Assembly (NCBI GenBank): GCA_004402915.1
Contig: SORU01000002.1
Span: forward strand, 28,842-92,841
Direction of reading: 5' to 3'
From: Fidelibacterota bacterium MT.SAG.2
GTDB lineage: Bacteria; Fidelibacterota; SORT01
DNA: 64,000 bases
Shown in pieces: positions 17,383 to 61,380 of the stretch (positions are counted from its first letter, which is position 1; each line of letters starts with the position of its first letter). A program made the translations under genes and the position numbers. The notes beneath the pieces were generated by a model that worked only from the letters and a program-made list of their open reading frames with translations, was not told the origin of the DNA and did not search any database.

Positions 17383-17455
17383 GCCACCATAGCTCAGTTG
17401 GAAGAGCAGGGGTTTTGTAAACCTCAGGTCGCGGGTTCGAATCCTGCTGGTGGCT
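17383..17455 (+). tRNA. tRNA-Thr(TGT)
   Basis: GCCACCA/TGGTGGC acceptor stem, GGGGT-TTTGTAA-ACCTC anticodon arm, TTCGAAT T-loop. Confidence 0.96.
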
Positions 17456-17465
17456 CTGCTGAGAC

Positions 17466-17548
<83 letters not shown>

Positions 17549-17563
17549 CGAATTGCGGTAATT

Positions 17564-17634
17564 GCGAGAGTAGCTCAGTGGTAGAGCCCCGGCCTTCCAA
17601 GCCGGATACGCGGGTTCGATCCCCGTCTCTCGCT
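17564..17634 (+). tRNA. tRNA-Gly(TCC)
   Basis: GCGAGAG/CTCTCGC stem, CCGGC-CTTCCAA-GCCGG. Confidence 0.95.
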
Positions 17635-17737
17635 CGGATGAAATCTCTTCAATTTTCCGAAGATTTTCCCAACTGTTTTTTCGTGTATTTTAGTGATCTT
17701 CAGGTGGCATATAGCGGTCACACTATCGGCAAGAGAA

Positions 17738-18171
17738 TTATTGCTTGGTATATTCAATCACGGTAAAGGTAGTGTAACCATCTACGGTCTCGCTGCTCGT
17801 TAGGGTAAGCTTATTTCCCGATATAGAATATTCATAAACGTCATCTCCATCACCAACCCCATACAGAGTCAGCGTATCTCCATCAGCCCACCAGCCGCCT
17901 GAATCGTTTTTTGTTTCAACAAGAGATAGGCTTTCCGCTGACCATCTGTTGTCAGCGCTGATAGTAAGCGTAAATTGCAAGTCATTAACGAATGTATACA
18001 CGAACGTAAAATCAGGATTTGAGATCGATCCCCTATAAATGGTGAATTTATCTGCTTTCCACGTACCAACCAATTCGTGAGTCTTGGTGCAGTAGGATTA
18101 TCATCACCACATGCGGAAAAGAGCGATAATGTCAATGATAGAATCAAGACTAAGATTTTCAAAGAATTCAT
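17738..18171 (-). pseudogene. Lipocalin-like lipoprotein with single frameshift
   Basis: Lipobox FSAC-GDDNPTAP in one frame; adding one base near 18085 gives PKTHELVGTW... and joins the 17738-18073 ORF. Confidence 0.7.
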
Positions 18172-18270
18172 TATCTAACTTCCTTTGTTGCGAATATAAA
18201 TGTCAATGTGGTTCTACCAATCTAGCTGATTCTTTAGCATAAGTCAAATATTAATTGAGTAAAAGGTTCT

Positions 18271-18327
18271 TGCCGCCCCCGATCATCCGATTTTGTCTGG
18301 ACGAGGAAGATGATGTGATTGAAATAG
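18271..18327 (+). repeat. Orphan secretion-CTD 3' tail, copy 1 (degenerate)
   Basis: Translates CRPRSSDFVWTRKMM*LK*; compare YRLQAGDFVQTRKMVLLK*. Confidence 0.7.
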
Positions 18328-18377
18328 AGGATCCCCGTCTCTTGCTTAATAGAGGATAATTTAGGCAATCATTTATC

Positions 18378-18406
18378 TTGCGAGATTTTAATTAATGAGG
18401 TATCTT
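18378..18406 (+). promoter_or_regulatory. sigma70-like promoter in the CTD-tail module, copy 1
   Basis: TTGCGA-17 bp-TATCTT, preceded by ATCATTTATC as in copy 2. Confidence 0.55.
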
Positions 18407-18490
18407 TTGACCTTAGTTTTGTGTAATCAATATGAGATATTTAAAAGGATATTGATGACATCTGAGCCTAAACGAAAATTAGCCTATTCA

Positions 18491-18618
18491 GTCTTTGCGA
18501 GAAGCGAGGCGACGAAGCCCGGAGGGATTCCTTTGGAACAATCTCAATTTAAAGCTGTGCGGGACAATTTTGAGATTGCCGCGATCATCCGCCAAGAGGC
18601 GGATTCCCTCGCAATGAC
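18491..18618. repeat. Complete GTC(A/T)TTGCGAG...CTCGCAATGAC palindromic element with nested mini-hairpins
   Basis: Terminal inverted repeats plus internal CAATCTC/GAGATTG; half copies at 2125, 2348 and 39800. Confidence 0.8.
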
Positions 18619-18873
18619 AGCTGATCACTGTTTAGGGCTTATTTTGATCTCCCTTAGACACGATATTTCACATACCGATTGGAGAAACGGACGCAAGTTG
18701 CAGCATTAAAAGTTTTTATTGTTAATGTGATGAATTTAGTCTTATATTTTTCATAGTGAAACTCCATAGGGTCTAACTTCTTGGTAATACTTGATAGCCC
18801 TTGAAGATTTTAGTTCAGTACGATAGGTCAGATGGAGCATACACTATTACTCAAACTCAAAAAGGAGCACGAT

Positions 18874-19485
18874 ATGCGGATAAATCCTTTATTTATCACC
18901 ATAGCACTCATTAGTATTATAACTGTAACCTCCTGCTCCGGCTACGAAGAGAAAAAGCCGGTTGCAAAAAGTTCTCGGGCTGTATCAGAGGTAAATGAGG
19001 GAACAGTAAGAAGAACTTACGTTGACAAGCCACTCATTGGTGCAAAGGGTTATGTAGTCGGCGATTGGGAAAAGGGAGAAGCCAGGGTTGAAGTAATGAA
19101 CTTCCCGCCATCAGAAACAGGATATGAAGCATTCCTCTTTGAAATTGATGTGATGGCCTATATGTCAATGATGTTCGTTGATGGAAATCCGGAAAAAGGG
19201 ATTGTCCCTGAACCACCACCTTTTGGTGACGTTGGAGCTTTGATAAGCCAATGGCACAGTTTAGGAGATATTGAGATGAACGACAATGGGGGCGGTACGC
19301 TCGAATATCGGGAAGGTGATGACCTTGTAGCCAAAGGACTCAACATGATAATGATATTTGAAAAGGTAACAGATGGTAGGCACGAAGGTCCTGAGGATTT
19401 CAGTAAGCTCATGGTCGAATGCAATGGGCCAGTTGCCGGATTCCCGGGTGCGGATATAATGGCTAAGGCGATAAATGTGTTTTAA
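18874..19485 (+). CDS. Lipoprotein of unknown function, possible RskA-C-like fold
   Basis: AAGGAG RBS; lipobox VTSC; pattern V.VMNFPP..GYEAFL...SLGDI...IMIFE. Confidence 0.65.
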   Translation: MRINPLFITIALISIITVTSCSGYEEKKPVAKSSRAVSEVNEGTVRRTYVDKPLIGAKGYVVGDWEKGEARVEVMNFPPSETGYEAFLFEIDVMAYMSMMFVDGNPEKGIVPEPPPFGDVGALISQWHSLGDIEMNDNGGGTLEYREGDDLVAKGLNMIMIFEKVTDGRHEGPEDFSKLMVECNGPVAGFPGADIMAKAINVF

Positions 19486-19533
19486 GTCTAAAAAATAATT
19501 GAATTGCTTTTTTCCAATTATGCTAAATGCCAA

Positions 19534-19569
19534 CTCGTCCCGACGATGAAGATGATCTGATTGAAATAG
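19534..19569 (+). repeat. Orphan secretion-CTD 3' tail, copy 2
   Basis: Translates LVPTMKMI*LK*; same internal TGA as copy 1. Confidence 0.65.
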
Positions 19570-19676
19570 AGTATCAGATTCATAAGGAATAGAGTTCCCC
19601 CGAGAGGACTCTTCGGTGACCTTTGGAGGATCTCCCTCTTTCGTTCACTGAATGCTAATTTAGCTGATCATTTATC

Positions 19677-19705
19677 TTGCGGAGAATTTAACAAATTGGT
19701 ATCTT
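19677..19705 (+). promoter_or_regulatory. sigma70-like promoter in the CTD-tail module, copy 2
   Basis: TTGCGG-17 bp-TATCTT with extended TGn, 24 bp upstream of the start codon. Confidence 0.6.
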
Positions 19706-19729
19706 CCAGCTTTAACAATGGAGGTACCG

Positions 19730-19954
19730 ATGCCGGAAGAAAAAAATGTAGGTCAACTTGACAGTATAATAAGAATAATTTTAGGCTTCGGCTTTGTAGG
19801 GTTGATCGCTTATCATTTCATTGGTGATAGAATTCTCCCGATCTATGGGCTTATTCCTGTCCTGATCCTTATACCATATTTCCTTAAAACCGGATTTACT
19901 AAAGTATGCCCGATCATGAAAGCCATGAATGTTTCGACTATCAAAAGCAAATAG
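19730..19954 (+). CDS. DUF2892/YgaP-like small membrane protein
   Basis: KNVGQLDSIIRIILG...TGFTKVCP; GGAGG RBS. Confidence 0.75.
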   Translation: MPEEKNVGQLDSIIRIILGFGFVGLIAYHFIGDRILPIYGLIPVLILIPYFLKTGFTKVCPIMKAMNVSTIKSK

Positions 19955-20019
19955 AATCACTGAAGCAGGAAAGTTAAATCTATAGATCTCAGTCATATCA
20001 AAAGAATGAGGTTATTGAG

Positions 20020-20325
20020 TTGAAATATAAAGTCCAAGCGAGAGTTATCCAGAGCAAATCTAAAGAGTTTTATCAGCTGCTCAAGGGCGGGAGTTTAGAA
20101 GAGCAAGCGCCCGACGGACCGGAAATTCTTGCCTCGATGGATAGAGCGACGGTGGACTCTTCAGGTTTAGTCAGGTGGACAGAAACGTGTTATTGTCCGA
20201 CTCCATTGAGACATGAACGGGCAACGGTTTACGATAAATATTTCTCTGATATGCAAACCGAGGAGACAACGGATCATGAAAGGTTTGAGGGAGAATCATT
20301 CTTAAAGCATATTTCTAAGAATTAA
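20020..20325 (+). CDS. Hypothetical protein with CYCPTPL motif
   Basis: TTG start with GAGG RBS; QAPDGPEI..SM..A...W.ETCYCPTPLRHER..VYD.YF. Confidence 0.65.
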   Translation: MKYKVQARVIQSKSKEFYQLLKGGSLEEQAPDGPEILASMDRATVDSSGLVRWTETCYCPTPLRHERATVYDKYFSDMQTEETTDHERFEGESFLKHISKN

Positions 20326-20355
20326 TGCTTTTGATTATCGCAAGCTACAAGTCCG

Positions 20356-20415
20356 TTCGCCCGACTGTCTGGCAGCGGTTTCATCCGGACAATGAAGATG
20401 TCTCTTTTGAACTGA
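20356..20415 (+). repeat. Orphan secretion-CTD 3' tail, copy 3
   Basis: Translates FARLSGSGFIRTMKMSLLN*. Confidence 0.6.
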
Positions 20416-20425
20416 ATACCGCTGA

Positions 20426-21409
20426 ATGAAAGCAATTGTCTATTACAGCTATGGCTCACCGGATGTTCTCGAATTCAAAGAAGTAGAAAAACCTGTTCCA
20501 AATGAGAATGAAGTCCTGATAAAAGTCCGGGCGGCGTCCGTAAATCCACTCGAGTGGCATTTCATGAGAGGCAAACCGCTCTTTATGCGACTAATGGGTA
20601 TAGGTCTTCTAAAACCGAAAAACAATATTCTCGGAGTTGACATAGCGGGCCGGGTAGAGGCGGTTGGCAGAAACGTAAAACGGTTTCAGCCGGGTGATGA
20701 GGTCTTCGGAGGAAGTAATTCCGGGGGAGGATATGCTGATTATGCCTGTGTCGATGAAGATCGATTAGCGCCGAAACCGGAGGGTACGACGTTCGAGGAA
20801 GCAGCGGCTATTCCTATAGCGGCAATCACCGCCTTGCAAGGTCTTCGAGATAAAGGAGAGATTCAGTCAGGACAAAAAGTATTGATAAATGGAGCGGGTG
20901 GAGGTGTTGGTACATTCGCGGTGCAGATAGCCAAATCGTTCGGGGCTGAAGTGACAGGAGTGTGCAGCACAGAGAAATTGGAGATGGTCAGTTCGCTCGG
21001 GGCAGACCGGGTAATTGATTATACTCAGGAAGATTTCACTGAAAATAGTGAGCGATATGATCTGATCTTTGATGCTGCGGCATATCGTTTGATTTCAGAC
21101 TATAAGCGCGCATTAAGTCCGAATGGAATTTATGTCATGATCGGTGGCTCGATGTCTCTCATGTTCCGAATTATGTTTTCAGGACCATGGCTTTCAATGA
21201 CCGGGAGTAAGAAATTCTTTGTCTTGATGGCGAAAATAACCGACAAGGATCTGGTATTCTTGAAAGAGCTTTTTGAAGCAGGGAAAGTAAAATCTATTAT
21301 AGACAGACGTTACCCGCTCAGTGAGGTTGCTGAAGCTATCCGGTATCTTGAAGAAGGACACGCCCGGGGAAAAGCTGTTATAACTTTGGAGCATGACAGC
21401 AAAACCTAA
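20426..21409 (+). CDS. NAD(P)-dependent MDR-family oxidoreductase (quinone oxidoreductase-like)
   Basis: YGSPDVL, ASVNP, VLINGAGGGVGTFAVQIAK, GHARGK. Confidence 0.9.
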   Translation: MKAIVYYSYGSPDVLEFKEVEKPVPNENEVLIKVRAASVNPLEWHFMRGKPLFMRLMGIGLLKPKNNILGVDIAGRVEAVGRNVKRFQPGDEVFGGSNSGGGYADYACVDEDRLAPKPEGTTFEEAAAIPIAAITALQGLRDKGEIQSGQKVLINGAGGGVGTFAVQIAKSFGAEVTGVCSTEKLEMVSSLGADRVIDYTQEDFTENSERYDLIFDAAAYRLISDYKRALSPNGIYVMIGGSMSLMFRIMFSGPWLSMTGSKKFFVLMAKITDKDLVFLKELFEAGKVKSIIDRRYPLSEVAEAIRYLEEGHARGKAVITLEHDSKT

Positions 21410-21506
21410 TATAGCGTTTCAGTTGATGGTGGTTCTGACCTTACAAGGAAGATAGCGTTTTTAAGTAATCTGCGTAGAAATTAAATAATCAGGAAAGGAG
21501 GAAGAA

Positions 21507-21728
21507 ATGCTCACTCTATTCGGCTCTGTTGCCGTCGCTGTCATGTTCTTGTCTTACTGGTTCGAGCCGAGGTCTAAATGGTTCGTTCTGATCTTCGCCG
21601 GTGCCTGTGCTTCTACTTCAGCCTACAGCGCCCTTGCGGGGGTCTACCCAATAACCGTTATTGAGGCGCTCTGGTCGATCGTGGCGTATCAGCGGTTCTC
21701 TCAGAGGAGTCGGCATGAGGCATCATAA
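21507..21728 (+). CDS. Small membrane protein
   Basis: AGGAGG RBS; three hydrophobic segments ending IEALWSIVAYQRF. Confidence 0.65.
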   Translation: MLTLFGSVAVAVMFLSYWFEPRSKWFVLIFAGACASTSAYSALAGVYPITVIEALWSIVAYQRFSQRSRHEAS

Positions 21729-21819
21729 CAATTCTTCTGGTGGATGGACTTGGAACGGGTTCTTTGCAACAGCTTGATCAAAGTAGGTTCATCGTAAAAC
21801 CAAATCAGTGAGTGGCTGG

Positions 21820-21897
21820 ATGGAATTCAGCATCGCTGAAAAGGAAGGTTACTCGGAAGTGGCTCAATTGCAGAAGAAAGCAGGTGCGAAGGTCTAA
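21820..21897 (+). pseudogene. C-terminal relic of an ankyrin-repeat protein
   Basis: IAEKEGYSEVAQLQKKAGAKV* resembles a terminal ankyrin helix (A..G..EV..LL..AGA). Confidence 0.5.
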
Positions 21898-21903
21898 CAA
21901 TAA

Positions 21904-21972
21904 GGCATCTACTTCTACCGTCTCCAAGCCGGCGATTTCGTCCAGACGAGGAAGATGGTTTTGTTGAAGTAG
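21904..21972 (+). repeat. Orphan secretion-CTD 3' tail, copy 4 (intact reading)
   Basis: GIYFYRLQAGDFVQTRKMVLLK* directly after an in-frame TAA; matches the CTD end of 58801-61380 (GIYFYRLSAADFTETKKMILLK*). Confidence 0.85.
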
Positions 21973-21997
21973 AACTGTCCCATAAACCCAGGTTATG

Positions 21998-22127
21998 ACA
22001 CACCCCGTCAGACCGATGTCGGGCTGGTTGATAGCGGGGAATTTTTCAGTCTCTCCTCGCGAAGGGAAAGGTTTATTGAAACCACCCCTCCGCTCAGAGC
22101 GGTTTTCCCTCCTTTGAAAGGAGGGGA
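21998..22127. repeat. REP-like palindrome cluster
   Basis: ACCACCCCTCCGCTCAGAGCGGTTTTCCCTCCTTTGAAAGGAGGGGA is similar to 58162-58209. Confidence 0.75.
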
Positions 22128-22325: not shown

Positions 22326-22398
<73 letters not shown>

Positions 22399-22468
22399 CT
22401 GAAAAAGTAAGATGTCCCGTTATTGGGAGGGACAATAAAAGAACTGAAATAGAACCAGGAGGAGATCG

Positions 22469-25643: not shown

Positions 25644-26339
25644 ATGAAGCATTCAAAAAGATATAATGAAAGTTCTAAGAAGGTGGATCGATTGACAGAG
25701 TATTCCCTGAACGACGCAGTGGCATTATTAAAGGATATGCCGGCTACGAAATTTGATCAGACGGTCGAAGTAGCAATTAATCTCGGAATAGATCCCAAGC
25801 ATGCAGACCAGCAGATAAGAGGGACGGTCTCTCTTCCTCATGGGATCGGGAAAACGGTAAAAGTTCTCGCCATCACTAAGGGCGAGAAGCAGAAGGAAGC
25901 AAAAGACGCGGGCGCAGATGTGGTAGGGTTTGAAGATATATTGGAGAAGATAGAGGGCGGATGGTCGGATATAGACGTCATAGTCGCGACACCCGACGTT
26001 ATGGGTCAGCTCGGAAAGCACGGAAGGATTCTTGGTCCGAAGGGATTGATGCCGAATCCTAAGAGCGGCACGGTAACAAACGACATAGGCAAAGCAGTGA
26101 AAGAATTGAAAGCGGGTAGGTTGGAGATCAGGACGGATAAGTTCGGAGCCGTTCACTCCGCGGTAGGGAAGCTTTCGTTTGACAACGACAAGATAGCAGA
26201 GAACATCAAAAGTCTCGTAAGTACTCTGATGCGGATGAAACCTGCGGTTGCAAAGGGTGTTTACTTTAAGAATATGACGATCTCGTCATCGATGGGTCCC
26301 GGTATAAAGGTTGAAAAGACCTCTGCGGGCGCAAAATAA
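25644..26339 (+). CDS. rplA: 50S ribosomal protein L1
   Basis: RGTVSLPHG, LGPKGLMPNPKSGTV, SSSMGPG. Confidence 0.98.
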   Translation: MKHSKRYNESSKKVDRLTEYSLNDAVALLKDMPATKFDQTVEVAINLGIDPKHADQQIRGTVSLPHGIGKTVKVLAITKGEKQKEAKDAGADVVGFEDILEKIEGGWSDIDVIVATPDVMGQLGKHGRILGPKGLMPNPKSGTVTNDIGKAVKELKAGRLEIRTDKFGAVHSAVGKLSFDNDKIAENIKSLVSTLMRMKPAVAKGVYFKNMTISSSMGPGIKVEKTSAGAK

Positions 26340-26372
26340 GATTTGAACATTTTTTTAATGGAGAACTGATAA

Positions 26373-26891
26373 ATGCCTAATGCTCAGAAGATAGAAGCCG
26401 TAAAGGAACTCGTTGAGAAGCTTTCCAAGGCAAAAGGGATCTATCTTGCCGATTTTACCGGATTGACGGTTCAGGAGGCGGTTGAATTCAGAAGGAAGCT
26501 CAAGGAGAACGGCATTGAGTACCGCGTTGCTAAGAACACTTTGATAAAGATCGCAGCGAAAGAAGCCAAAATTGAAGGACTTTCGGAATATCTTGTAGGT
26601 CCGACGGGGATCGCTTTGAGTTACGATGATCCCGCCAGTCCCGCGAAGCTATTCTACGATTTTGCAAAAGAAAATGATAAGATGAATGTGAAGGTGTGTT
26701 GGATGGAGGGCGAACTGTTCGGGGCGGAGAAGTTCGTGGAGATAGCCAAGCTGCCACCGAGAAATGAAATGTTAAGTCGTCTTATCGGCGATTTGCAGAG
26801 TCCGATGAGAACATTGGCAGCAACTCTCCAAGCGTCGATGTCCAAATTGGTAGGAACTTTGAATTCACTAAAAGACACTAAACAGGAATAG
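26373..26891 (+). CDS. rplJ: 50S ribosomal protein L10
   Basis: DFTGLTV, RVAKNTL, GPTGIA. Confidence 0.96.
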   Translation: MPNAQKIEAVKELVEKLSKAKGIYLADFTGLTVQEAVEFRRKLKENGIEYRVAKNTLIKIAAKEAKIEGLSEYLVGPTGIALSYDDPASPAKLFYDFAKENDKMNVKVCWMEGELFGAEKFVEIAKLPPRNEMLSRLIGDLQSPMRTLAATLQASMSKLVGTLNSLKDTKQE

Positions 26892-26960
26892 ATAAATTTT
26901 AATTATAAACATGATAAGCAACCAGCCCGACATAGGTCTGGCAGGGAGGATAGACTAAGA

Positions 26961-27341
26961 ATGGCAGCCATCAAAAAAGATGATGTAATCTCTTACCTCG
27001 AGAAAGCGAATATGCTTGAGATATCCGAGTTGATCGGAGATATAGAAGAGAAATTCGGAGTAACAGCAGCAGCGCCGGTCGCGGTAGCGGAGGCAGAAGG
27101 CGGAGATGCCGGCGTAGCAGCGGAAGAAAAGACAGAATTCGATGTTTTTCTCGCAGATATAGGCCCTCAGAAAATTCAGGTTATCAAGACGGTCAGAGCC
27201 ATGACGGATCTTGGATTGACAGAAGCGAAGGAAGTTGTTGACAAAGCACCCGGTAATGTGATTGAGGGGGTCTCAAAGGAAGACGCCGAGAAAGCAAAAG
27301 CAGCTTTAGAAGAGGTTGGCGCAACAGTAGAGCTGAAGTAA
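26961..27341 (+). CDS. rplL: 50S ribosomal protein L7/L12
   Basis: [26 protein letters not shown]. Confidence 0.98.
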
Positions 27342-27402
27342 ATATCCGTTTCGCGCAAGAATATCTAAACTTTCAAGCGATTTATCGCAAGGAGGAATAC
27401 TC

Positions 27403-30400
27403 TTGAAAAGAGTAAAGGGTCAATTTTTGACTCGGCAGTCCTTCGCTAAGATTCCCGTATCTGTTGATATGCCGAATCTTCTTGACATTCAGCTGTTGTC
27501 GTACGAGGATTTTTTGCAGCAGAGTGTGAAACCCGAGGATAGGGAGAGTAAAGGGCTACAAGCCGTATTTGAGACTGTCTTTCCAATTGAAGACAATCAT
27601 GGAAATTTTAAAATTGAGTTTCTAAATTATTTTGTAACATATCCTAAATACACTGTTGAGGAGTGCCAAGACAGGGGAATGAGTTACAGCGCGCCGCTGA
27701 AAGCGAATCTTCGACTGACGGTGGCGAGTGAAGACGATAAAAACGTTGTTGCCGAAGTTATTGAGCAGGAAGTCTTCTTCGGAAACGTTCCTTATATGAC
27801 AGATCGGGGAACGTTCATCATCAATGGGGCCGAAAGGGTTATCGTCAGCCAGCTGCATCGCTCACCGGGAGTTTTCTTCGATCAGAGTATTCATCCGAAC
27901 GGGACAAGATTGTTCTCGGCAAGGATCATACCTTTCCGCGGGTCATGGGTCGATTTCACTACGGATATTAACGATGCGCTTTTCGCGTTGATAGACAGGC
28001 GAAAGAAGTTTCCCGTAACAACTCTTTTGCGCGCTATCGGCTATTCGACGAACGCCCAAATATTAGAGTTGTTCGGTATGGCAAAAGAGCTCAAGGTCGG
28101 CTCTAAAAATATTTCCGATCATTTTGAGTCCGCCATCGCCGAAAATATAATCAATAAGGAGACGGGCGAGATACTTGCGGAGGCGGGTTCTCCTCTCAAC
28201 GAAGAGGTAGTTGCCATTCTTAAGAAAGAGAAGGTCAGATCCGTAATCATCTTCGACGCTTCAGACGAAAAAGACGCTGAAGTAATCGCCAATACTCTGA
28301 AGAAGGATACTTCCACCGATGAGGAATCGGCGCTTCGGCTTATCTATAAACAATTGAGATCCGGAGAACCGCCGAATATAGAGACTGCGCGGAAATTCGT
28401 TGACAGACTCTTTTTCAGTCCTGCGAAGTACGACCTCGGAAGCGTAGGAAGGTATCGTATAAACAGAAGGTTCGATCTTAAAACGTCTGACGATGTTACG
28501 GTTCTCACCAGAGAAGATATTGTCGCGATAATTAAACATCTGATGGAAGTAAAGAAGGGTAATGAGACCACGGACGACATCGATCATTTAGGAAATAGAC
28601 GGATAAAGACGGTCGGAGAACAGCTCAGCAATCAGTTCAGCATCGCTTTCGCGCGTACTGCGAGGACAATAAAAGAACGCATGAATGTAACCGACGGGGA
28701 AACGCTGACTCCTTCAGACCTCATTAACTCACGGATAATCACTTCCGTAGTCAATACGTTCTTTGGAACAAGTCAGCTTTCGCAGTTCATGGACCAAACA
28801 AACCCGCTCTCGGAATTGACTCACAAGAGGCGTCTGAGCGCACTCGGACCGGGTGGATTGACGAGAGAACGGGCAGGGTTCGAGGTAAGAGACATTCATT
28901 ATACACACTATGGCCGTCTCTGTCCTATCGAGACTCCGGAGGGTCCGAACATCGGACTTATCTCTTCGCTTTGCACATTCGCGAGGATAAATCAACTCGG
29001 ATTTATCGAGACTCCTTATATGAAAGTCAGCCATCACGGTAAATCAAGGGTGACAAAGAAAGTAGTGTTTCTATCAGCCGACGATGAAGAGAAAATGAAG
29101 ATAGCGCAGGCAAATGCTCCGCTGAACGATAAGGGAGAATTCTTAGAATCGACCACTCGTGTGAGATTACGGGCGGATTATCCTCTTGTGGATATCAAAT
29201 CTGTTCAATATATGGACGTTGCTCCTCAGCAGATAGTCAGCGCCGCCGCAGCGTTGATACCGTTCTTGGAGCATGACGATGCTAACCGCGCGCTCATGGG
29301 TTCAAATATGCAGCGGCAGGGTGTTCCGCTTCTCAGACCGGGTACTCCTATAGTAGGAACCGGAATGGAACGGATAGTGGCGATGGATTCCAAGGCGGTA
29401 GTGCTTTCAGACGTCACCGGAGTAGTTCAGAGCGTCTCGGCGGATAAGATAGTCGTACGCAGAGATATATCCGAGTCCGAGGCTCTTCATCAGATCACCG
29501 ATGAAGGGGTACGGGAGTTTGATCTTATCAAATTCCTCCGGACGAACCAGGATACTTGTGTCAATCAAAAGCCTTTAGTCAAGGTCGGCGATAAGGTAAA
29601 AGTCGGTGATGTGTTAGCCGACGGCGCCGCAACCGAAATGGGCGAGCTTGCTCTCGGGCAAAACGTCCTGGTCGCTTTCATGCCATGGAGAGGTTATAAC
29701 TACGAAGACGCAATTGTCGTAAGCCAACGGCTTGCGAGAGATGATGTCTATACTTCTATACATATTGAGGAATACGAGCTTCAGGTCAGAGACACCAAAC
29801 GGGGCGAAGAAGAGCTTACGAGGGAGATACCCAACGTGAGCGAAGAAGCCACGATGAACTTAGATGAAAACGGCGTTATAAGAGTTGGAGCTGAGGTTGA
29901 GCCCGGAACTATCTTAGTAGGTAAGGTGACTCCCAAAGGTGAGACCGATCCCACACCTGAAGAAAAGCTTCTCAAAGCCATCTTCGGAGAGAAGGCGGGC
30001 GACGTAAAGGATGCCTCGCTGAAAGCCTCACCCGGCGTTCATGGAGTAGTGGTCGACACAAAAGTCTTCACACGCCGAAGCAAAGACTTCAAACAGGAAG
30101 AGAAGAAGAAAGCGGCAAAGATAAGTTATGAATTCAACAGGCGGTTGAAATGGCTCCGCGAGCTTCGTAACGCGAAATTGACGAAGATCTTGGAAGGCAA
30201 AAAGAGCATGAGCTTACGCGATGTTGAAACCGGAAAGAGCGTTCTGAAAGCCGGTCTCGAGTATAACGCCGACCGAATTGATTCGATAGATTTCGACAAT
30301 GTCAGCAAGGATACTCCTTGGACAGATAACACTGAAGCCAACGAATCTGTCTTCAAATTAATGAAGAACTACGAAACAAAAGTTACCCAATTAAATGAAG

Positions 30401-31179
30401 AGAGAGATAGGGAATCGTTCAAGCTCAAGGCGGGTGACGATCTTCCCCCCGGAATAATTCAGCTGGTAAAGGTTTATATCGCCTCGAAGAGAAAGATTTC
30501 GGTGGGTGATAAGATGGCAGGACGCCATGGTAACAAGGGTGTTGTGGCAGAGATAGTGCCGATAGAAGATATGCCTCACTTGAAAGACGGCACACCGATA
30601 GATATGATCCTTAATCCGTTAGGCGTTCCCTCACGTATGAATTTAGGGCAGATCTACGAAACTCTGCTCGGATACGCAGGATTCAAACTCGGTGTTTATT
30701 ATGAGACTCCGGTGTTTGACGGCGCCCAAGCTTCAGAGGTTGCTGATGAGTTGAAGAAAGCGGGGATCCCCGAAGACGGCAAGATTGAACTTTATGACGG
30801 AATCACAGGTGAGAAATTCGATCAAAGAGTGACGGTAGGAAAGATATATATGCTGAAACTCTCTCACCTTGTTGACGATAAAATGCACTCACGTTCAACC
30901 GGACCCTATTCACTTATAACTCAGCAGCCGTTAGGCGGGAAGGCGCAGTTCGGCGGGCAGCGGTTCGGAGAAATGGAAGTATGGGCTCTTGAAGCTTACG
31001 GAGCTGCTCACACACTCCAGGAGATGTTGACGATAAAATCCGATGATGTCGAAGGCAGATCGAAGACTTATGAGGCTCTTGTCAAAGGTCAGAACCTGCC
31101 TGAACCCGGTATCCCTGAATCTTTCAACGTGCTGTTACGAGAGCTGATGGGCTTAGGATTAGACATTGAACTTAGATAG
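27403..31179 (+). CDS. rpoB: RNA polymerase beta subunit
   Basis: SQLSQFMDQTNPL, GDKMAGRHGNKG, GGQRFGEMEVWALEAYGA. Confidence 0.99.
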   Translation: MKRVKGQFLTRQSFAKIPVSVDMPNLLDIQLLSYEDFLQQSVKPEDRESKGLQAVFETVFPIEDNHGNFKIEFLNYFVTYPKYTVEECQDRGMSYSAPLKANLRLTVASEDDKNVVAEVIEQEVFFGNVPYMTDRGTFIINGAERVIVSQLHRSPGVFFDQSIHPNGTRLFSARIIPFRGSWVDFTTDINDALFALIDRRKKFPVTTLLRAIGYSTNAQILELFGMAKELKVGSKNISDHFESAIAENIINKETGEILAEAGSPLNEEVVAILKKEKVRSVIIFDASDEKDAEVIANTLKKDTSTDEESALRLIYKQLRSGEPPNIETARKFVDRLFFSPAKYDLGSVGRYRINRRFDLKTSDDVTVLTREDIVAIIKHLMEVKKGNETTDDIDHLGNRRIKTVGEQLSNQFSIAFARTARTIKERMNVTDGETLTPSDLINSRIITSVVNTFFGTSQLSQFMDQTNPLSELTHKRRLSALGPGGLTRERAGFEVRDIHYTHYGRLCPIETPEGPNIGLISSLCTFARINQLGFIETPYMKVSHHGKSRVTKKVVFLSADDEEKMKIAQANAPLNDKGEFLESTTRVRLRADYPLVDIKSVQYMDVAPQQIVSAAAALIPFLEHDDANRALMGSNMQRQGVPLLRPGTPIVGTGMERIVAMDSKAVVLSDVTGVVQSVSADKIVVRRDISESEALHQITDEGVREFDLIKFLRTNQDTCVNQKPLVKVGDKVKVGDVLADGAATEMGELALGQNVLVAFMPWRGYNYEDAIVVSQRLARDDVYTSIHIEEYELQVRDTKRGEEELTREIPNVSEEATMNLDENGVIRVGAEVEPGTILVGKVTPKGETDPTPEEKLLKAIFGEKAGDVKDASLKASPGVHGVVVDTKVFTRRSKDFKQEEKKKAAKISYEFNRRLKWLRELRNAKLTKILEGKKSMSLRDVETGKSVLKAGLEYNADRIDSIDFDNVSKDTPWTDNTEANESVFKLMKNYETKVTQLNEERDRESFKLKAGDDLPPGIIQLVKVYIASKRKISVGDKMAGRHGNKGVVAEIVPIEDMPHLKDGTPIDMILNPLGVPSRMNLGQIYETLLGYAGFKLGVYYETPVFDGAQASEVADELKKAGIPEDGKIELYDGITGEKFDQRVTVGKIYMLKLSHLVDDKMHSRSTGPYSLITQQPLGGKAQFGGQRFGEMEVWALEAYGAAHTLQEMLTIKSDDVEGRSKTYEALVKGQNLPEPGIPESFNVLLRELMGLGLDIELR

Positions 31180-31218
31180 ATATGATTACGAGGCTGATTT
31201 ACCCCTTAGGAGGATAGT

Positions 31219-34200
31219 TTGGCATATATAAAACCACGACAGGCGAAGTTTAAAGAAGAATTCACCGAAATAATTATTTCTCTTGCTTCTCCCGATGCAA
31301 TACTTTCCCGTTCTTACGGTGAAGTGCTTAAACCGGAGACGATAAATTACCGTACCTATAAACCGGAGAAGGACGGGCTGTTCTGCGAGAAGATCTTCGG
31401 TCCGGTCAAAGACTGGGAATGTCACTGCGGAAAATATAAGAGGCCGCGTTACAAGGGGATCATCTGTGACCGGTGCGGAGTCGAAATAACCCGCAAGAAA
31501 GTCCGGAGAGAGCGGATGGGACACATCACTTTAGCGGTACCGATAGTCCACATCTGGTATCTCCGCTCGATACCGAGCAAGATCAGCTACGTCTTGGGGA
31601 TGTCGGTCAAGGAACTCGAAAAGATAGTTTATTATGAGAACCATGTTGTTGTAGCTCCCGGCAGGACGACTTTAGACAAAAATCAGCTCCTGACGGAAGA
31701 GGAATACAATGAAGTTATTGAGGAGTTCGGCGAAGAGATAGAAGAAGGCGATGAACCGCTGATAGTTGAAACGGGCGGTGACGCCATCCGAAAAATGCTC
31801 TCCATTATAGTGGTGCCGGACCTTATGGCAGAATTGCATGAGAAGGTTCTTACCGAGACTTCTGTTCAGCGGAAGAATGATGCTCTCAAACGGCTCCGTG
31901 TTGTGAAAGCCTTCGCGGAAAAAGAAGGCAAGAAGTTGAACAAACCTGCGTGGATGGTGATGAACATCATTCCTGTAATACCTCCGGAACTCAGACCTCT
32001 CGTGCCACTTGACGGCGGCAGGTTCGCCACAAGCGACCTTAACGATCTTTACCGGCGCGTCATCATACGTAATAATCGTTTGAAGCAGCTCATGGAAATA
32101 CGCGCTCCCGAGGTCATCTTGAGAAACGAAAAACGGATGCTTCAGGAAGCGGTGGATTCACTTTTTGATAACTCGCGCAGACGCACAGCGGTGAGAAGCG
32201 GCACACGAAGGCTGCTTAAGAGCCTTTCAGATATGCTCAAAGGGAAACAGGGCAGGTTCCGCCAAAATCTACTCGGTAAACGAGTGGATTATTCGGGACG
32301 TTCGGTAATTGTTGTCGGACCGGACTTGCAAATGCATCAATGCGGATTGCCGAAAGAGATGGCGATAGAGTTATTCAAGCCGTTTATCATCAACAAACTT
32401 ATTGAGCGCGGCTATCAGAATACAGTCAAGGGCGCAAAAAGAATGGTCGAGGGGAAAGACCCCCAAATATGGGATGTCTTAGAAGAGGTGATCGAAGATC
32501 ATCCCGTTCTTCTCAATCGCGCGCCTACCCTTCACAGGCTCGGAATACAGGCATTTCAACCCGTTCTGGTCGAGGGAAGAGCTATTCGAATTCATCCGCT
32601 TGTCACTACGGCGTTCAACGCTGACTTTGACGGTGACCAGATGGCGGTACATATTCCGCTTTCAGTTGAAGCTCAACTCGAAGCCCGCGTGCTGATGCTT
32701 TCGAGTCACAACATTCTTTCTCCGGCGCACGGTATGCCGATCGCGCTGCCTTCGCAGGACATGGTATTGGGATGCTACTATCTGACGAAGACTCTTCCCG
32801 GCGCGAAGGGTGAAGGTATGGTTCTCAGCTCTACATCAGAGGCGATTATCGCATATGATCATAAAGAGATAGCATTACATGCCATTGTAAAGGTGCGGAT
32901 GAACGGCGAGCTCGTTGAGACGACCGCTGGCAGGGTTATTTTTAACACTGTAGTTCCGGAAACTTTGGAGTATGTGAATAGGGTAGTTACTAAAAAGCAT
33001 CTTGAAAAGATTGTGGGTGAAGCATTCAGATTGTCTGGTAACTATGAGACTGTCAAATTCCTTGACGGGTTGAAGAGACTCGGCTTTGAACATGCGACAA
33101 TGGGCGGAATCTCTTTCGGTCTCGGTGATGTGGTCATCCCTCCGGAGAAAGATGCATTGGTGGAATCTGCCCGGAAGCAGGTCGATCAGATCATGGCGCA
33201 ATACGATGCGGAGATCATTACCGACGGCGAGCGGTATAATAAAGTGATCGATATTTGGACCACCACGAGTTTGAAGATAGGCGACGCTATGATGACTCAC
33301 CTCAAGGAAGCGGATCACGGATTTAATCCTGTTTATATGATGTCCGATTCCGGCGCAAGAGGAAACAAAGAGCAGATCCGGCAGTTAGCCGGTATGCGCG
33401 GACTTATGGCGAAACCGCAGAAGAGTCTCACGGGCGGCACCGGTGAGATCATTGAAAATCCGATCGTATCGAACTTCAAAGAAGGGCTTACAGTACTTGA
33501 ATACTTTATTTCGACGCATGGCGCGCGAAAAGGACTTGCCGATACTGCATTGAAAACAGCCGATGCGGGTTATCTCACAAGACGGTTGGTTGACGTAGCT
33601 CAGGATATGGTAATTCTCGAAGAGGATTGCAAAACAATTCGTGGAATTTCAATCTCTGCTCTTAAAGAAGGTGAAGAGGTCAAAGAGCTTCTTAAGGACA
33701 GAGTCCTTGGAAGGGTTTCGCTTGACGACGTTTACGATCCGATAACAGAAGAATTTATCGTGGGCGCAGGCAAGGAGATAGTTGAAGCCGTAGCTGATAA
33801 GATTGAAAACAGTTCGGTCGAAACAATGTCGATCCGTTCTGCGTTGACCTGTGAAGCCAAGCGCGGTCTTTGCGTTCGCTGCTATGGCCGAAATCTCACT
33901 ACAGGGAAGATGGCGAATATCGGGGAGGCAGTCGGTATCATGGCTGCCCAAAGTATCGGAGAGCCGGGAACACAGCTGACTCTTCGTACATTCCACGTCG
34001 GCGGTATCGCAAGCGTCATCGCCGCCAGGACCGAGATGAACGCCAAGGTAGCGGGAATTATAAAATATGATAAGGGTCTTAAAGTCACAAAGAAGAGGAA
34101 AGAGGGAAGAATTGCCCTTACAAGGAATTCCAGGATACATATCATAAACAATGACGGTCAAAATCTTGTGAACTATAACGTTCCTTACGGAGCGGGCGTC

Positions 34201-35475
34201 CTCAAGAGGGACGGCGCGAAGATAGAAAAGGATGAAGTGATATTCAAGTGGGACCCGGATATGGATGTAATCCTTGCTCCGGAAGACGGCAAGGTCAAAT
34301 TCCACGAGATAATCGAGGGACAGACACTGCGCGAGGAATCTGATGAAGCGGGTCGTAAACAGCGATTTATCATTGAATCGAGAGACAAAAAACTTTCGCC
34401 GAAGATAGAGATATCGGCAAAGGGGAAGAAATCTCCATCGAGCTCGAGGATCCCTGTCCGTTCACAGCTCATGGTAGTCGATGGACAGACTGTAGTACAG
34501 GGCGACATACTTATCAAGAAGCGTCGTGAAAGCAGGAAAGCCGGCGATATTACCGGCGGTCTTCCGAGAGTTGCGGAACTCTTCGAGGCGAGACAGCCTA
34601 AAGAACCCGCCGTCGTGACCGAAATTGACGGTGTCGTGAGTTACGGTAAGTTGAAACGAGGTGTGCAGGAGATCTATATCAACGAGGGACATGAAGAAGA
34701 TGAGAAGAAATATAATATTCCATACGGAAAACATATTCTTGTGCATCCGGGTGATATAGTTATTGCCGGCGAGGCATTGTCTGAAGGGTCGATCGTGCCG
34801 CAGGATATTCTGAGCATTCTCGGACCGGGTCGAGTTCAAGAGTATTTGGTGGATGAGATTCAGGCTGTTTACCGATTCCAAGATGTGCGTATCAACGATA
34901 AGCATATTGAGGTCATAGTCAGGCAGATGATGCAGAAGCTCGAAGTTGAAGATCCGGGCGATACCGATTATCTTGAGGGCGATCGTGTAAATAAGGTTGC
35001 CTTCCTTAAAGAGAACATTAAGATGGAAGGGATCGTTGTGATCACCGATTCAGGCGACTCCAAAATCGCTGTCGGTGAGATCTTGGATAAAGAACGCTTT
35101 AAACAAACCAACGAACGCTTGAAGAAGGTAAAGAAAGCTCCCATGAAATCGCGCCCTGCTAAGCAGGCAACATCGAAACCGCTGCTCCTCGGGATTACCA
35201 GAGCCTCACTCAACACTGACAGCTTCATCTCCGCAGCTTCATTCCAGGAGACTACAAGAGTGCTTACGGATGCGGCTGTAGCGAGTAAGGTAGATCCGCT
35301 GAGAGGGTTGAAAGAAAACGTTATTATGGGACGATTGATACCTGCCGGAACAGGAACAATAAACATGAAAGATATGGAACTGATAGTCGACGATGATATT
35401 AAAACCGGTGTCAGCGAACAGATATCCGAATTGGAAGAGAAGGAAGCCGATGGAGTGGAAGAAAAAAGTCTGTAA
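31219..35475 (+). CDS. rpoC: RNA polymerase beta' subunit
   Basis: NADFDGDQM catalytic motif, Zn ribbon, SAASFQET. Confidence 0.99.
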
Positions 35476-58800: not shown

Positions 58801-61380
58801 TCATTTCAAAAGAATCATCTTTTTGGTTTCCGTGAAGTCGGCGGCACTGAGACGGTAAAAGTAAATGCCGGAGGAGACGTTCGAAGCGTTCCATTCGAAT
58901 ACATGAACCCCGGCGGGCTGCATCCCATTCGATAGGCGTTCGACCTCACGACCGTTCACGTCATAGATGATCAAGGAAATAGTAGCCGCTACCTTGTTAT
59001 GGTATTTTATAGTTGTGACCGGGTTGAACGGGTTCGGATAATTCTGCGCGAGTGTGAAGCGCTGCGAAATTGCTGACGGTTCCGGTCTTACTCTTACGAT
59101 CGCCTCGGGCAGCTGCCGTTGATAGACTCCGCTGCCGTGCGTCGCGACACGAAGTTTTCTGTTTTGCGGCGAGATGACCAGGTCCATTACGATCACGGCT
59201 TCGGGCATGCCATCCATCAGAGTTTGCCACGTATTGCCCGTATCGGCTGACACGTAAACACCGATGTCGTTTCCGACATACAGACGGGCAGGGTCTTCAG
59301 GGTTTATAAGAACCGCGTTTGTCGGAATATCGGGCAATCCGCTTCCGATATCGTCCCAGTTAAGTCCGCCGTCCGCCGACCGGAAGAGATGCGAGGAGCC
59401 GAATTCCGACAGAGCCGCATATACAACATTGTTATCAGTCGGATCGACCGCCAGATCGACTATGTACCGGTCAGGGAGATCCTGCGTGATATCCGTCCAG
59501 CTGATTCCGCCGTCACGCGTCACAAAAACGTGTGCCCTCGAATACCATGGAGCGGTAGCGACGTAAACGACATTCGGATCAATTTCGGCTATTGCCATTG
59601 TAAGTACCGGGTTACCGTCGAGTTCATTTCCGTTATTCCCCGCAGTCCAGGAGGCGCCGCCGTCGGTCGTGCTATGAACGATGCTTCCTCCCGCATAGAG
59701 ATGATCGGGGAATGTCGGGCTCATAACAAAAGGCGAGATGAAGTTAAGACTCTCGTTCGTTGTGTTTTGAGGAGAAACATTCGAAAAAAAGTTCATTCCT
59801 CTGTCGTTGGATCTGAGAATGTTTCGATAGTACCATGAGCCGTAAATAATATTGTCATCGCTCGTATTGATAGCGGAATAAGCGCCGTCGCCTCCGATGA
59901 CTTTCATCCAGCCGTCACCGCCGTAATATATAGCGCTTCCGTTATCCTGAAGTCCGCCCATTGCGAGGTTGGAGTCGAGTCTTGAACTCGAAAATCCCGA
60001 GTAGAATTGAGTCGTTTGATAACCGCCGTTCGAACTTCGGTATGTTTCTCCGCCGTCGATAGTGCGGAATATTCCGCCGTCGGTAGCGAAATAAATGGTG
60101 TCCCGGTCTGTCGGATGGAAGACCATCGCATGGTGGTCGGCATGAGAATAGTCCGCAGGTCCTTCGGGATCACCGGGGGGAACTACCGTTCCGAATGACC
60201 ATTTCCACCAGTAGGTCTTTTGGCTGAACGTGCCGGAATCTTCGATCCATTTGAAAATATCGATACCGCCCACAATCACCTTCGAGGAATCGGTCGGATG
60301 AACGCCGACAAAGTGAGAATACCAGCCCTGATAGATAGAGTAATCGAAATCTGAAAGCAGTGTCCATGTGTCGCCTCCATCTGTTGACCTGCAAAGCTGT
60401 GTAGCTGTCGCGCCGCCGTGACTGAAGCCGATACTTACATAAATCGTACTCGGGTCTGCCTCAAAGATAGAGAGTACAGCCTTTCCTCCGAAAGTTGCCG
60501 GTAGGCCGGCGGTCAACTTCTCCCAGCTGCCGCCCGAATCCTGAGTTCTGTAAATGCCGTGACCCTGACTGAACAGATCGCCATGTGTCACGAAAACGAT
60601 ATTCGTATCGACAGGGTTAACCGCCAGATCCATCGCCATGATGACCGAATTAACGAGGGTCCAGGAGGTTCCCGCGTCAAAAGAGCGATAAACTCCGTCG
60701 GTCGTCGCAGCCCAAACGGTGTTCGGATTTTGCGGGTTCAATCGAATAGCTTCGATCCCTTTACGCTGGTCGAGAGAGAAATCGAGGCTCTTCTCCCATG
60801 CAACGCCGCCATCAGAGGTTTTCAGGATGCCGATCCCGTAGCTGCCTCTCGTGGCTCTGATGCTATAGCCCGTGCCAGTGCTTTCGGAATTATAAACCTC
60901 GCCCGTCCCTATATACATAGTGTTGGAATCATCGGGTGAGATCGCTATCGAGCTGACGCTCAGAACGGGGAAGGCTGTCGAAACGTGTTCCCATGCCTGC
61001 GCACCCTCACCGAGAGTGTAGCTGCGCCATAATCCACCGCCGGCAGAACCGGCATAGATCGTGTTCGGGTTTTGCGGGTTGAACGCAATTGCAAGCGTCC
61101 TGCCGCCGATGTTTTTCGGTCCGATAGCTTCCCAGGGGTGAGAAGCAGAGCTTTTACTGAGAGAGCGTTGCATCAATTTAGTTTGTTCAAACGCCTGATA
61201 GAAACCGCTTGCGGGAACATCATCACCCGGATAGGCGCGCTGAACCGCCCATCCTTGCAACGCTCTGAATGCCCCGGATATCTTGCCTTTCTTTTCGGTC
61301 TCATCTGAAGACGTGAGATATACGATTATCAAAACGATGACCATTGCAATGGGTATGAGAAATTCTCTGCGTTTATTCAT
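58801..61380 (-). CDS. Secreted BNR/Asp-box beta-propeller (VPS10/GH74-like) protein with T9SS type-A-like CTD
   Basis: Many SxDGGxTW repeats; C-terminal QNYPNPFNP...SGIYFYRL...KKMILLK. Confidence 0.88.
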   Translation of the reverse strand: MNKRREFLIPIAMVIVLIIVYLTSSDETEKKGKISGAFRALQGWAVQRAYPGDDVPASGFYQAFEQTKLMQRSLSKSSASHPWEAIGPKNIGGRTLAIAFNPQNPNTIYAGSAGGGLWRSYTLGEGAQAWEHVSTAFPVLSVSSIAISPDDSNTMYIGTGEVYNSESTGTGYSIRATRGSYGIGILKTSDGGVAWEKSLDFSLDQRKGIEAIRLNPQNPNTVWAATTDGVYRSFDAGTSWTLVNSVIMAMDLAVNPVDTNIVFVTHGDLFSQGHGIYRTQDSGGSWEKLTAGLPATFGGKAVLSIFEADPSTIYVSIGFSHGGATATQLCRSTDGGDTWTLLSDFDYSIYQGWYSHFVGVHPTDSSKVIVGGIDIFKWIEDSGTFSQKTYWWKWSFGTVVPPGDPEGPADYSHADHHAMVFHPTDRDTIYFATDGGIFRTIDGGETYRSSNGGYQTTQFYSGFSSSRLDSNLAMGGLQDNGSAIYYGGDGWMKVIGGDGAYSAINTSDDNIIYGSWYYRNILRSNDRGMNFFSNVSPQNTTNESLNFISPFVMSPTFPDHLYAGGSIVHSTTDGGASWTAGNNGNELDGNPVLTMAIAEIDPNVVYVATAPWYSRAHVFVTRDGGISWTDITQDLPDRYIVDLAVDPTDNNVVYAALSEFGSSHLFRSADGGLNWDDIGSGLPDIPTNAVLINPEDPARLYVGNDIGVYVSADTGNTWQTLMDGMPEAVIVMDLVISPQNRKLRVATHGSGVYQRQLPEAIVRVRPEPSAISQRFTLAQNYPNPFNPVTTIKYHNKVAATISLIIYDVNGREVERLSNGMQPAGVHVFEWNASNVSSGIYFYRLSAADFTETKKMILLK

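Follow-up and report, generated by a model that had tools for sequence, protein, structure and literature searches.

Orphan secretion-domain tails punctuate a tRNA-adjacent gene island in Fidelibacterota and may serve as anchors for recombination

Multicopy coding sequences for secretion signals are usually viewed as protein features only. In the DNA analysed here, a window of 64,000 nucleotides that forms part of the 105-kb contig C2 of Fidelibacterota bacterium MT.SAG.2, short 3′ fragments of one such sequence, that of the type A C-terminal domain (CTD) of type IX secretion system (T9SS) cargo proteins, lie without the rest of their genes in an island between tRNA-Gly(tcc) and tRNA-Thr(ggt). 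These fragments, termed orphan tails below, make up about 40% of the tail copies in the source genome (G000) and bound gene units there and, likewise, across one family of an abundant uncultured marine-sediment phylum. On balance, it is probable that the tails have acted as homology for recombination within the island. The source genome is a bin of 1.69 Mb in 118 contigs and is 66.65% complete. It was compared with five relatives of the same family, of which G002 is congeneric and G003 and G004 belong to other genera (G001 and G005 complete the set), and with genomes of other families; all are metagenome bins, except G029, which is called closed.

Four orphan tails had been reported in a first-pass annotation of this DNA, all on the + strand, and their positions and translations proved correct when checked against the sequence. 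Described as a motif recurring in direct orientation, the four copies are indeed tied together by a 20-nt family in a repeat search (80–100% identity; 18293–18312, 19535–19554, 20381–20400 and 21938–21957). All four are also scored by a nucleotide hidden Markov model (HMM; nhmmer) made from the last 78 nt of 25 intact G000 tails that end frames of at least 200 aa, which bears out the proposal that they derive from the last strands of a type A CTD. Tail 1 (18269..18327, + strand; E = 6.7e-6 for 18269–18326) and tail 2 (19534..19569, +; E = 0.032 for 19534–19568) are decayed and carry the same internal TGA, tail 2 being 93% identical to tail 1 over 30 nt. Tail 3 (20356..20415, +) scores E = 0.0021 for 20365–20411, and the next gene starts 11 nt past its stop. 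The best background matches in the search of the whole window have E values of 0.29–0.9; a match of copies 1–3 to a CTD model, set earlier as a test, was thus obtained for copies 1 and 3 and is marginal for copy 2. Tail 4 (21902..21972, +; E = 1e-19 for 21902–21971) is near-consensus, with a 22-codon open frame and 97% identity to the consensus of the last 13 codons. Together with its flank it is 96.5% identical over 85 nt to the tail and flank of a 109-aa frame on contig C51, and the flank (21973..22010, +) also stands behind six other G000 tails, both orphan and attached. In contigs of four studies, its bin is ~60–100 times as deep as the bins on either side. Judged by sequence, tail 4 appears to be the only fresh tail of the island.

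No upstream gene body was found at any of the four copies, in agreement with the earlier description: only the 22-codon frame runs into copy 4, and copies 1 and 2 are interrupted by their TGA. For comparison, the window contains an intact T9SS cargo gene (58801..61380, − strand) with a full type A CTD (PF18962, E = 2.7e-10, profile positions 2–74 of 75), the tail of which (58801–58877) scores E = 3.8e-15 with nhmmer. This gene has the complete ~75-residue C-terminal domain that defines PF18962 (Por_Secre_tail), and the orphans do not: they end frames of 2–43 codons and share with intact genes, in DNA alignments, the last 23–92 nt only, while copies 1–4 do carry the sequence of the last strands. 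A fifth tail, absent from the first-pass annotation, lies at ~21410..21460 (+). It is decayed, has lost its stop codon and reaches only E = 0.23 alone; it aligns with a clear G002 tail (L031 4833–4877, E = 1.6e-5) at the same place after a paralogous dehydrogenase gene. A sixth, very decayed tail seen by eye at ~22055–22085 gave no nhmmer match at E ≤ 10 and was dropped. In the contigs of the four studies, bins 21302–21475, which contains the fifth tail, and 20780–20953, a conserved part of the dehydrogenase gene, have a depth 2–12 times that of neighbouring bins.

The island starts directly behind tRNA-Gly(tcc) (17564..17635, +), the last of the genes for tRNA-Thr(tgt), tRNA-Tyr and tRNA-Gly(tcc) at 17383–17635, and is bordered on the right by tRNA-Thr(ggt) (22326..22399, +), followed by tuf, tRNA-Trp, secE, nusG and rplK; tRNAs were located with ARAGORN and the island genes were sorted by Pfam profile search. 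To the left of tail 1 lies a lipocalin-like lipoprotein gene (17738..18171, −; PF13648, E = 3.7e-5), which is broken into two overlapping frames here and intact (144 aa) in G002. Between tails 1 and 2 is a 217-aa lipoprotein-like gene of no Pfam family (18832..19485, +), homologues of which occur elsewhere in G002 and G004 with a truncated tail 57–90 nt downstream. A YgaP-like membrane protein gene of 78 aa (19718..19954, +; PF11127, E = 4.6e-10) and a 101-aa open reading frame (ORF) without a family in the Pfam search (20020..20325, +) precede tail 3, and a zinc-type dehydrogenase gene of 327 aa (20426..21409, +; PF13602, E = 7.8e-28) separates it from the fifth tail. A 73-aa membrane-protein-like ORF (21507..21728, +), taken from the ORF list and shown by alignment to stand also behind the G002 tail, is the last before tail 4. 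Scans of the island gave 14 promoter-like sites, compared with 9.3 ± 2.8 in shuffles, and five terminator-like sites, compared with 4.6.

The gap from tRNA-Gly to tRNA-Thr(ggt) measures 4,690 nt in G000, 6,013 nt in G002, 472–627 nt in three other family genomes and 47–120 nt in three genomes of other families. These lengths mark the stretch as an island that entered at the tRNA-Gly 3′ end. The repeat search showed that this 3′ end, from the T-loop to the discriminator base (17618..17634, +), is the first copy of an att-like core, and that a second copy, identical at 16 of 17 positions, follows 2 nt past tail 1 (18330..18346, +), giving a direct repeat of the tRNA end at the boundary; the window contains two matches in all, against 0.04 expected in shuffles. 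A weak third copy (19629..19645, +; 13/17, 76%) is followed by the second junction segment described below. The array had been called integrase-free. None of the 13 PF00589 matches of G000 lies on contig C2 and the island holds no integrase gene, yet its position at the tRNA-Gly 3′ end and the 16/17 core copy 2 nt past tail 1 form a signature of integrase-type insertion, and the description is not supported in its plain form.

Besides their derived internal stop, tails 1 and 2 have in common that each is followed by a tRNA-like core and by the same ~55-nt segment, the first copy of which lies at 18347..18406 (+; defined by alignments) and includes a promoter-like hexamer pair that is weak and below the scan threshold. 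On account of the shared stop, core and segment, the first two boundaries are copies of one duplicated junction module, and tails 1 and 2 are parts of it and not independent relics. Such duplicated junctions are as expected from related elements inserting successively at a tRNA gene. Two further repeats lie close by. The 80-nt segment at 18400–18480, past the junction module, recurs at 76–81% identity in G001, G002, G003 and G005, with at least some copies near tails; the segment 18490–18620, within a spurious-looking 104-aa ORF, is GC-rich and palindrome-rich, matches several unrelated loci in G000 and its relatives at 71–89% and is probably a REP-like (repetitive extragenic palindromic) repeat.

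The arrangement of the island is no artefact of assembly or binning, since it is present in contigs from runs of four different studies and a single contig of 1,644 nt spans from before copy 1 to past copy 2. The organism was traced to no fewer than 20 public sequencing runs on marine sediment, from 8 studies, and those traced were DNA contigs throughout. Elsewhere in G000, five tails lie within ~200 nt of a contig end (C17:74, C48:172, C92:174, C62:2674 and C49:4765, the C49 tail being cut by the end). The tail repeat thus seems to break assembly, and the number of tails and arrays is therefore probably underestimated.

Across the 1.69 Mb of G000, the tail HMM gave 60 matches at E ≤ 0.01: 25 orphans (frame shorter than 60 aa, away from contig edges), 34 tails attached to longer frames and one at a contig edge. 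Fourteen of the 25 orphans lie in a single 19-kb array on contig C21 (10.9–29.8 kb), all on the + strand. A scan of this kind had been proposed as a check on whether orphan tails are distributed at random, and this clustering shows that they are not. All five island tails and all 14 C21 array orphans are on the strand of the array genes. Orphan tails are present in all five other family genomes. A search with a 34-residue tail query from this family, in which any match that ends a frame of 60 aa or less was counted as orphan, gave eight of 35 in G001, six of 23 in G003 and five of 27 in G004; these 19 include two at contig edges and a few weak ones. Nucleotide searches with the tail and the C21 repeat module found matches in each of the five family relatives and in one of the seven other genomes searched. 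Outside the family, four genomes together gave three orphans among 132 tails, and searches with queries from their own tails gave none of 27 in the closed genome G029 and one of 75 in G036; since such searches would overlook short orphans whose tails are divergent, orphans are better called rare than absent in other families. In G003, of another genus, an orphan tail (E = 4e-9) lies in the same tRNA-Gly to tRNA-Thr gap of only 472 nt. A perfect 28-nt GC-rich REP-type palindrome stands behind this G003 tail (L012, on contig C89, ~1890–1960).

In the C21 array each orphan stands behind one or two small ORFs, which belong to the ferredoxin, GYD, Lgt-like, CsgG-like, NTP-transferase, PhyH and DUF1670 families or, in many cases, to none. 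Between ~6.8 and 27.3 kb the contig carries at least six copies of a 450–550-nt repeat, of which the tail is often the first part and which comprises the orphan tail, a short hairpin, ~300 nt, a tRNA-3′-end-like core and a conserved flank of ~110 nt; at least 12 other sites, on C21, C3, C4, C19, C38, C39, C59 and C79, carry partial copies of its last 190 nt. The T-arm motif of the core occurs nine times in G000 and seven times in the five relatives, never inside a tRNA gene. No Rfam family was found in the C21 array at the gathering score, and no tRNA or tmRNA lies there. A tmRNA origin of the repeat was rejected, the best match to the C30 tmRNA locus (gene with flanks) being only 11 nt, as was a resident tRNA as the source of the core, in that no ARAGORN tRNA of this 67%-complete bin has that 3′ end. 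Integrase genes or fragments adjoin several arrays (a 101-aa fragment at C21:204–401, G002:C3 by tRNA-Leu, and G004:C5). Punctuation in these arrays is thus of two kinds, tails on the one hand and, on the other, att-like cores that speak for integrase activity.

Several observations on these arrays are recorded in their own right. The array unit at C21 19917–21584 (L002:4917–6584) encodes a protein of 555 aa whose N-terminal domain is Lgt (prolipoprotein diacylglyceryl transferase), and is followed by an orphan tail; an array unit is an unusual place for an essential-type enzyme such as Lgt. By tRNA-Leu(caa) on C4 (~26000–34470) lies an element that encodes a tyrosine integrase of 355 aa and has DnaB-like helicase and replication-protein-like genes; a tRNA-like core and two CTD genes come after it. 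Its integrase side is present at 96% identity in G002, where a tail array lies beyond. Gene pairs of the DUF1670 family with helix-turn-helix domains, 94% identical in DNA, stand directly behind a tail in the C21 array (L001:5087–6768) and on contig C40 of G001 (L047 801–4181). DUF1670 matches are sporadic in the phylum, occurring in three of the six family genomes, G000 included, and in four genomes of other families; among 14 control genomes only Methanosarcina acetivorans has them, and a literature search found no paper that mentions the family. The pairs were considered as a dedicated recombinase and set aside, their distribution across genomes not tracking that of the orphans.

Comparison between genomes gave two crossovers that could be placed within a defined block. 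In G001, a CTD gene of 657 aa (CTD-657) has a tail like that of the G000 gene CTD-639 up to ~−31 nt and from there like the tail and downstream flank of CTD-422, the neighbouring G000 gene. The switch falls inside a 35-nt block (−66 to −31) that is identical in both G000 tails, and G000 has an extra unit of 1,344 nt at this point. By these alignments, the hybrid tail is a product of tail-to-tail recombination. The second crossover is in the island. The unit 18407..19655 (+) is absent at this site in G002, where the junction is copy-1-like on the left and copy-2-like on the right; the switch occurs where 15 nt of the junction segment are identical, ~40 nt past the tRNA-like core. Aligning the tRNA-Gly to tRNA-Thr locus of a relative had been suggested as a check on whether synteny breaks fall in the tails, and for G002 this one does not: it sits in the junction module.

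Four units that carry a truncated tail of their own recur between genomes. An 86-aa ORF with a 25-codon tail is common to G000 C21 and G004 C5 (93.7% over 527 nt), and a 370-aa ORF whose tail is ~37 nt long is common to G004 and G000 C69 (95.2% over 794 nt). A ferredoxin gene with 23 tail codons occurs on G000 C21 and G002 C3 (92.7% over 626 nt), and the lipoprotein gene of 217 aa occurs with its truncated tail in the window, on G002:C37 and on G004:C29. In the first three, homology stops with the stop codon, and different neighbours follow in the genomes compared. Units shared by G000 and G004 are 93–95% identical, whereas non-array DNA of the same G004 locus is 68–77% identical, which indicates, at the level of sequence, that units moved recently between genera. 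In two G000 arrays, six of 18 homology ends lie in a tail or within 15 nt of one, compared with 7.2% of positions (binomial P = 0.0012). In contigs of four runs, which cannot show rare variants, there was no population joint between island tails with at least 30 letters on both sides; the joints listed had sides of 21–26 letters or joined similar tRNAs and were read as other loci or organisms.

We therefore favour, with modest confidence, a reading in which homologous recombination takes place at dispersed tail repeats within an old, partly decayed island that was seeded by an integrase. Integrase-type insertion at the tRNA-Gly 3′ end would have founded the island, the integrase of the first insertions having presumably been lost since, and remodelling would have followed through recombination between the short repeats that punctuate the array. 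The orphan tails would be truncated copies (~23–92 nt) of the 3′ part of one near-identical type A CTD subfamily; present in dozens of copies per genome and common to genera, the tail block can offer portable homology. Crossovers between two tails, or between neighbouring tRNA-like cores or junction segments, would delete, insert or swap whole units, each unit bringing its own truncated tail as a 3′ border. The crossovers would be of the RecA type, and gene conversion may hold many orphans near the sequence of live tails. In each of the two mapped cases the crossover falls in the longest identical block available, and the two involve different kinds of repeat, which fits homologous recombination better than one fixed site. 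The earlier proposal that CTD 3′ ends serve as recombination anchors thus gains from the hybrid tail, the units with their own tail, the six homology ends and the clustering of orphans, and is at odds with the position of the island's G002 crossover in the junction module.

Several points weigh against this reading. Of the 18 homology ends, 12 are away from tails (six at 50–102 nt, the others at the tRNA-like core or further), and the count is biased, because the loci were partly fetched with tail-containing queries. Just two crossovers are mapped to a block, and the island's own lies outside any tail. Some units shared between genera (C69/G004) have tails with only ~26–37 nt matching the consensus, which is at the lower limit for efficient homologous recombination. 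Contig C21 is assigned to the window's organism by binning, and joins after full-length tails could be mis-assemblies, all genomes here being metagenome bins. Island tails 1–3 and the fifth are decayed and may be relics past recombining; island segments are 76–87% identical to G002, compared with 92–97% for the flanks, and the decay of the inner tails together with this lower likeness makes the island look like an old array. Finally, the left borders of the orphans are clustered, unlike random deletion in genes of 200–1,200 codons, and recombination between existing tails offers no explanation for this; how a non-CTD gene first gains a truncated tail is likewise not explained by it.

The cores and integrases beside the arrays raise the alternative of a dedicated, integron-like site-specific system, in which the last ~25 nt of the tail or the adjoining tRNA-like core is the site of a tyrosine recombinase and units move as cassettes. 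The layout is of that type, with co-oriented short ORFs each followed by the repeat and an opposite-strand integrase gene or fragment at one end (C21:204–401, G004:C5). The right border of units is sharp at the stop codon while the left border of the tails varies, as attC lengths do; tails as short as ~23–37 nt still bound shared units; and one G004/G000 homology block ends inside a core of the kind found nine times in G000 and seven times in relatives outside tRNA genes. Nevertheless, we regard this alternative as unlikely. Three tails folded on both strands gave z-scores of −0.92 to +0.76 against shuffles, none of them folding better, and this ruled them out as attC-like hairpin sites. The hybrid-tail crossover lies in the middle block and not at a fixed 3′ site, and the island indel switches in a third kind of repeat. 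The 105-kb contig of the window is without an integrase, the integrases by arrays are fragments or part of ordinary tRNA-adjacent elements, and the DUF1670 pairs, present in two arrays, do not track orphans across the phylum. Similarly doubtful is a bolder version, in which the last 25–70 nt of CTD genes would be the cassette-end site of a new integron-like capture system that, with the cores and tyrosine integrases, orders arrays of units mobile between genera, and the 13–25 codons retained would be a minimal export signal, with a small frame change toggling surface display.

The anatomy of the orphans bears on whether they are anything more than remains. Their homology to intact genes starts 23–92 nt before the stop, with groups near −40 and at −59 to −70, and ends at the stop codon, whereas intact genes of the same subfamily can be aligned for 100–256 nt; 22 of 29 truncated copies keep no more than 43 codons. 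Differences from the consensus fall on codon positions 1, 2 and 3 in the numbers 24, 14 and 41 in 21 orphans and 13, 8 and 30 in 11 intact tails. Changed codons are synonymous or non-synonymous in the ratio 35:32 in orphans and 23:18 in intact tails, and the last 13 codons are open in 18 of the 21 orphans. By this measure the orphans carry a coding-type pattern, which suggests either young copies or copies kept like live tails by conversion.

If the tails were passive debris, left by deleted T9SS cargo genes in islands and with no part in later rearrangement, the decay of island tails 1–3 and of the fifth (E = 7e-6 to 0.23), some with internal stops, would follow, and longer remnants or broken CTD genes do exist (C3:31934, with 294 nt of homology and a stop, C39:10899 and C41:5900). 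The remnant lengths just described are unlike random deletion, however, and the substitutions are coding-like and not neutral; extreme clustering, the hybrid tail, tail-bounded units common to genera and the orphan in the 472-nt gap of G003 all speak against debris, and the genome comparisons already point to repeated recombination or conversion at orphan tails. We hold this explanation to be quite unlikely.

The same open frames and coding-type substitutions would fit tails that are kept for a function of their own, as a latent minimal export tag captured by a small frame change or as a shared 3′ regulatory element. In one account, the T9SS signal is the last 22 CTD residues, which when fused to GFP led to secretion in Porphyromonas gingivalis (PMC4804311, citing Shoji, 2011). 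Most orphans keep 13–25 codons, that is the last two CTD strands, an export signal by that account, and many upstream genes encode lipoproteins or signal-peptide proteins, as read by eye from their N-termini. As the orphans keep about as much as the 22-residue signal, the suggestion that new cargo could capture a secretion tag would not be absurd. Against a function of this kind, no orphan is in frame with its upstream gene, and spacing and frame vary; several upstream genes are cytoplasmic by family (dehydrogenase, ferredoxin, GYD), and no stable structure is predicted for the tails. Retention for function in this sense seems to us improbable.

Should recombination at tails be the right explanation, a conserved protein tail would double as portable DNA homology, through which diverged genomes swap small gene sets without dedicated mobile-element machinery. 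This would give accessory-gene flux a simple route, and would also cause mis-annotation and breaks in the assembly of such genomes. The arrays also provide material for asking what minimum repeat length drives unit exchange in nature and whether new proteins can capture a T9SS tail of 13–25 residues.

Among known systems, integron arrays and clusters of attC sites lacking integrases (CALINs) are alike in layout: both there and in the window island and the C21 array, co-oriented, mostly small and unrelated ORFs are each followed by a member of one repeat family, relatives differ by whole units, and some arrays have an opposite-strand integrase gene or fragment at one end. The repeat here differs in being the 3′ end of a protein-coding domain, without the attC palindrome that folds as a single strand (three tails); the mapped crossovers are in identity blocks and not at a fixed site, and no full integrase adjoins the window island or the C21 array, there being none on C2 and only the 101-aa PF00589 fragment on C21. 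REP sequences and miniature inverted-repeat transposable elements are defined by a palindrome or terminal inverted repeat and occur in either orientation; the tails show no significant folding and keep the strand of the array genes. Integrative elements accrete in tandem at tRNA genes, and integrase-less derivatives of them are known as cis-mobilisable elements. Exact insertion at a tRNA 3′ end, repetition of that end inside and related junctions in tandem are shared with the present island; here, however, the units measure only 0.7–1.3 kb and are without an integrase, and most inner boundaries are a tail without a tRNA-like core. In the silent pilin cassettes of Neisseria (Sma/Cla repeat) and in 'minimal mobile elements', short conserved gene-end or flanking sequences supply homology for exchange without a dedicated recombinase. 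What is exchanged there are variants of one gene, or the exchange takes place between fixed conserved neighbours, whereas the arrays described here hold many unrelated genes, all bounded by a single dispersed repeat.

A loose analogy to orphan Rhs (rearrangement hotspot) and contact-dependent inhibition (CDI) modules had been drawn at first pass. Arrays of type VI secretion system (T6SS) effector–immunity genes in Vibrio cholerae have been proposed to arise from homologous anchoring and illegitimate joining (Kirchberger et al., 2017; PMC5361080), and they and the Rhs/CDI tips resemble the present arrays in their strings of units, short remnants of a conserved gene between them and horizontal acquisition. 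In those systems the anchor is a 5′ region or an upstream gene and the cargo consists of toxin tips and immunity genes. Here the conserved piece is not a 5′ core remnant: it is the last 23–92 nt of a secretion domain, and the cargo is made up of unrelated metabolic, membrane and lipoprotein genes (over the arrays, lipocalin-like, YgaP-like, dehydrogenase, ferredoxin, GYD, Lgt, NTP-transferase, PhyH or no family). The analogy therefore survives as a mirror image, with a 3′ end in place of a 5′ core, and fails for the cargo, which is of housekeeping or envelope type. The literature searched, supplements not covered and in part judged by titles and the first lines of abstracts, yielded no description of orphan CTD tails or of arrays bounded by them. 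The arrays differ from each of the nearest known processes in their repeat, the 3′ end of a secretion domain, and in their cargo.

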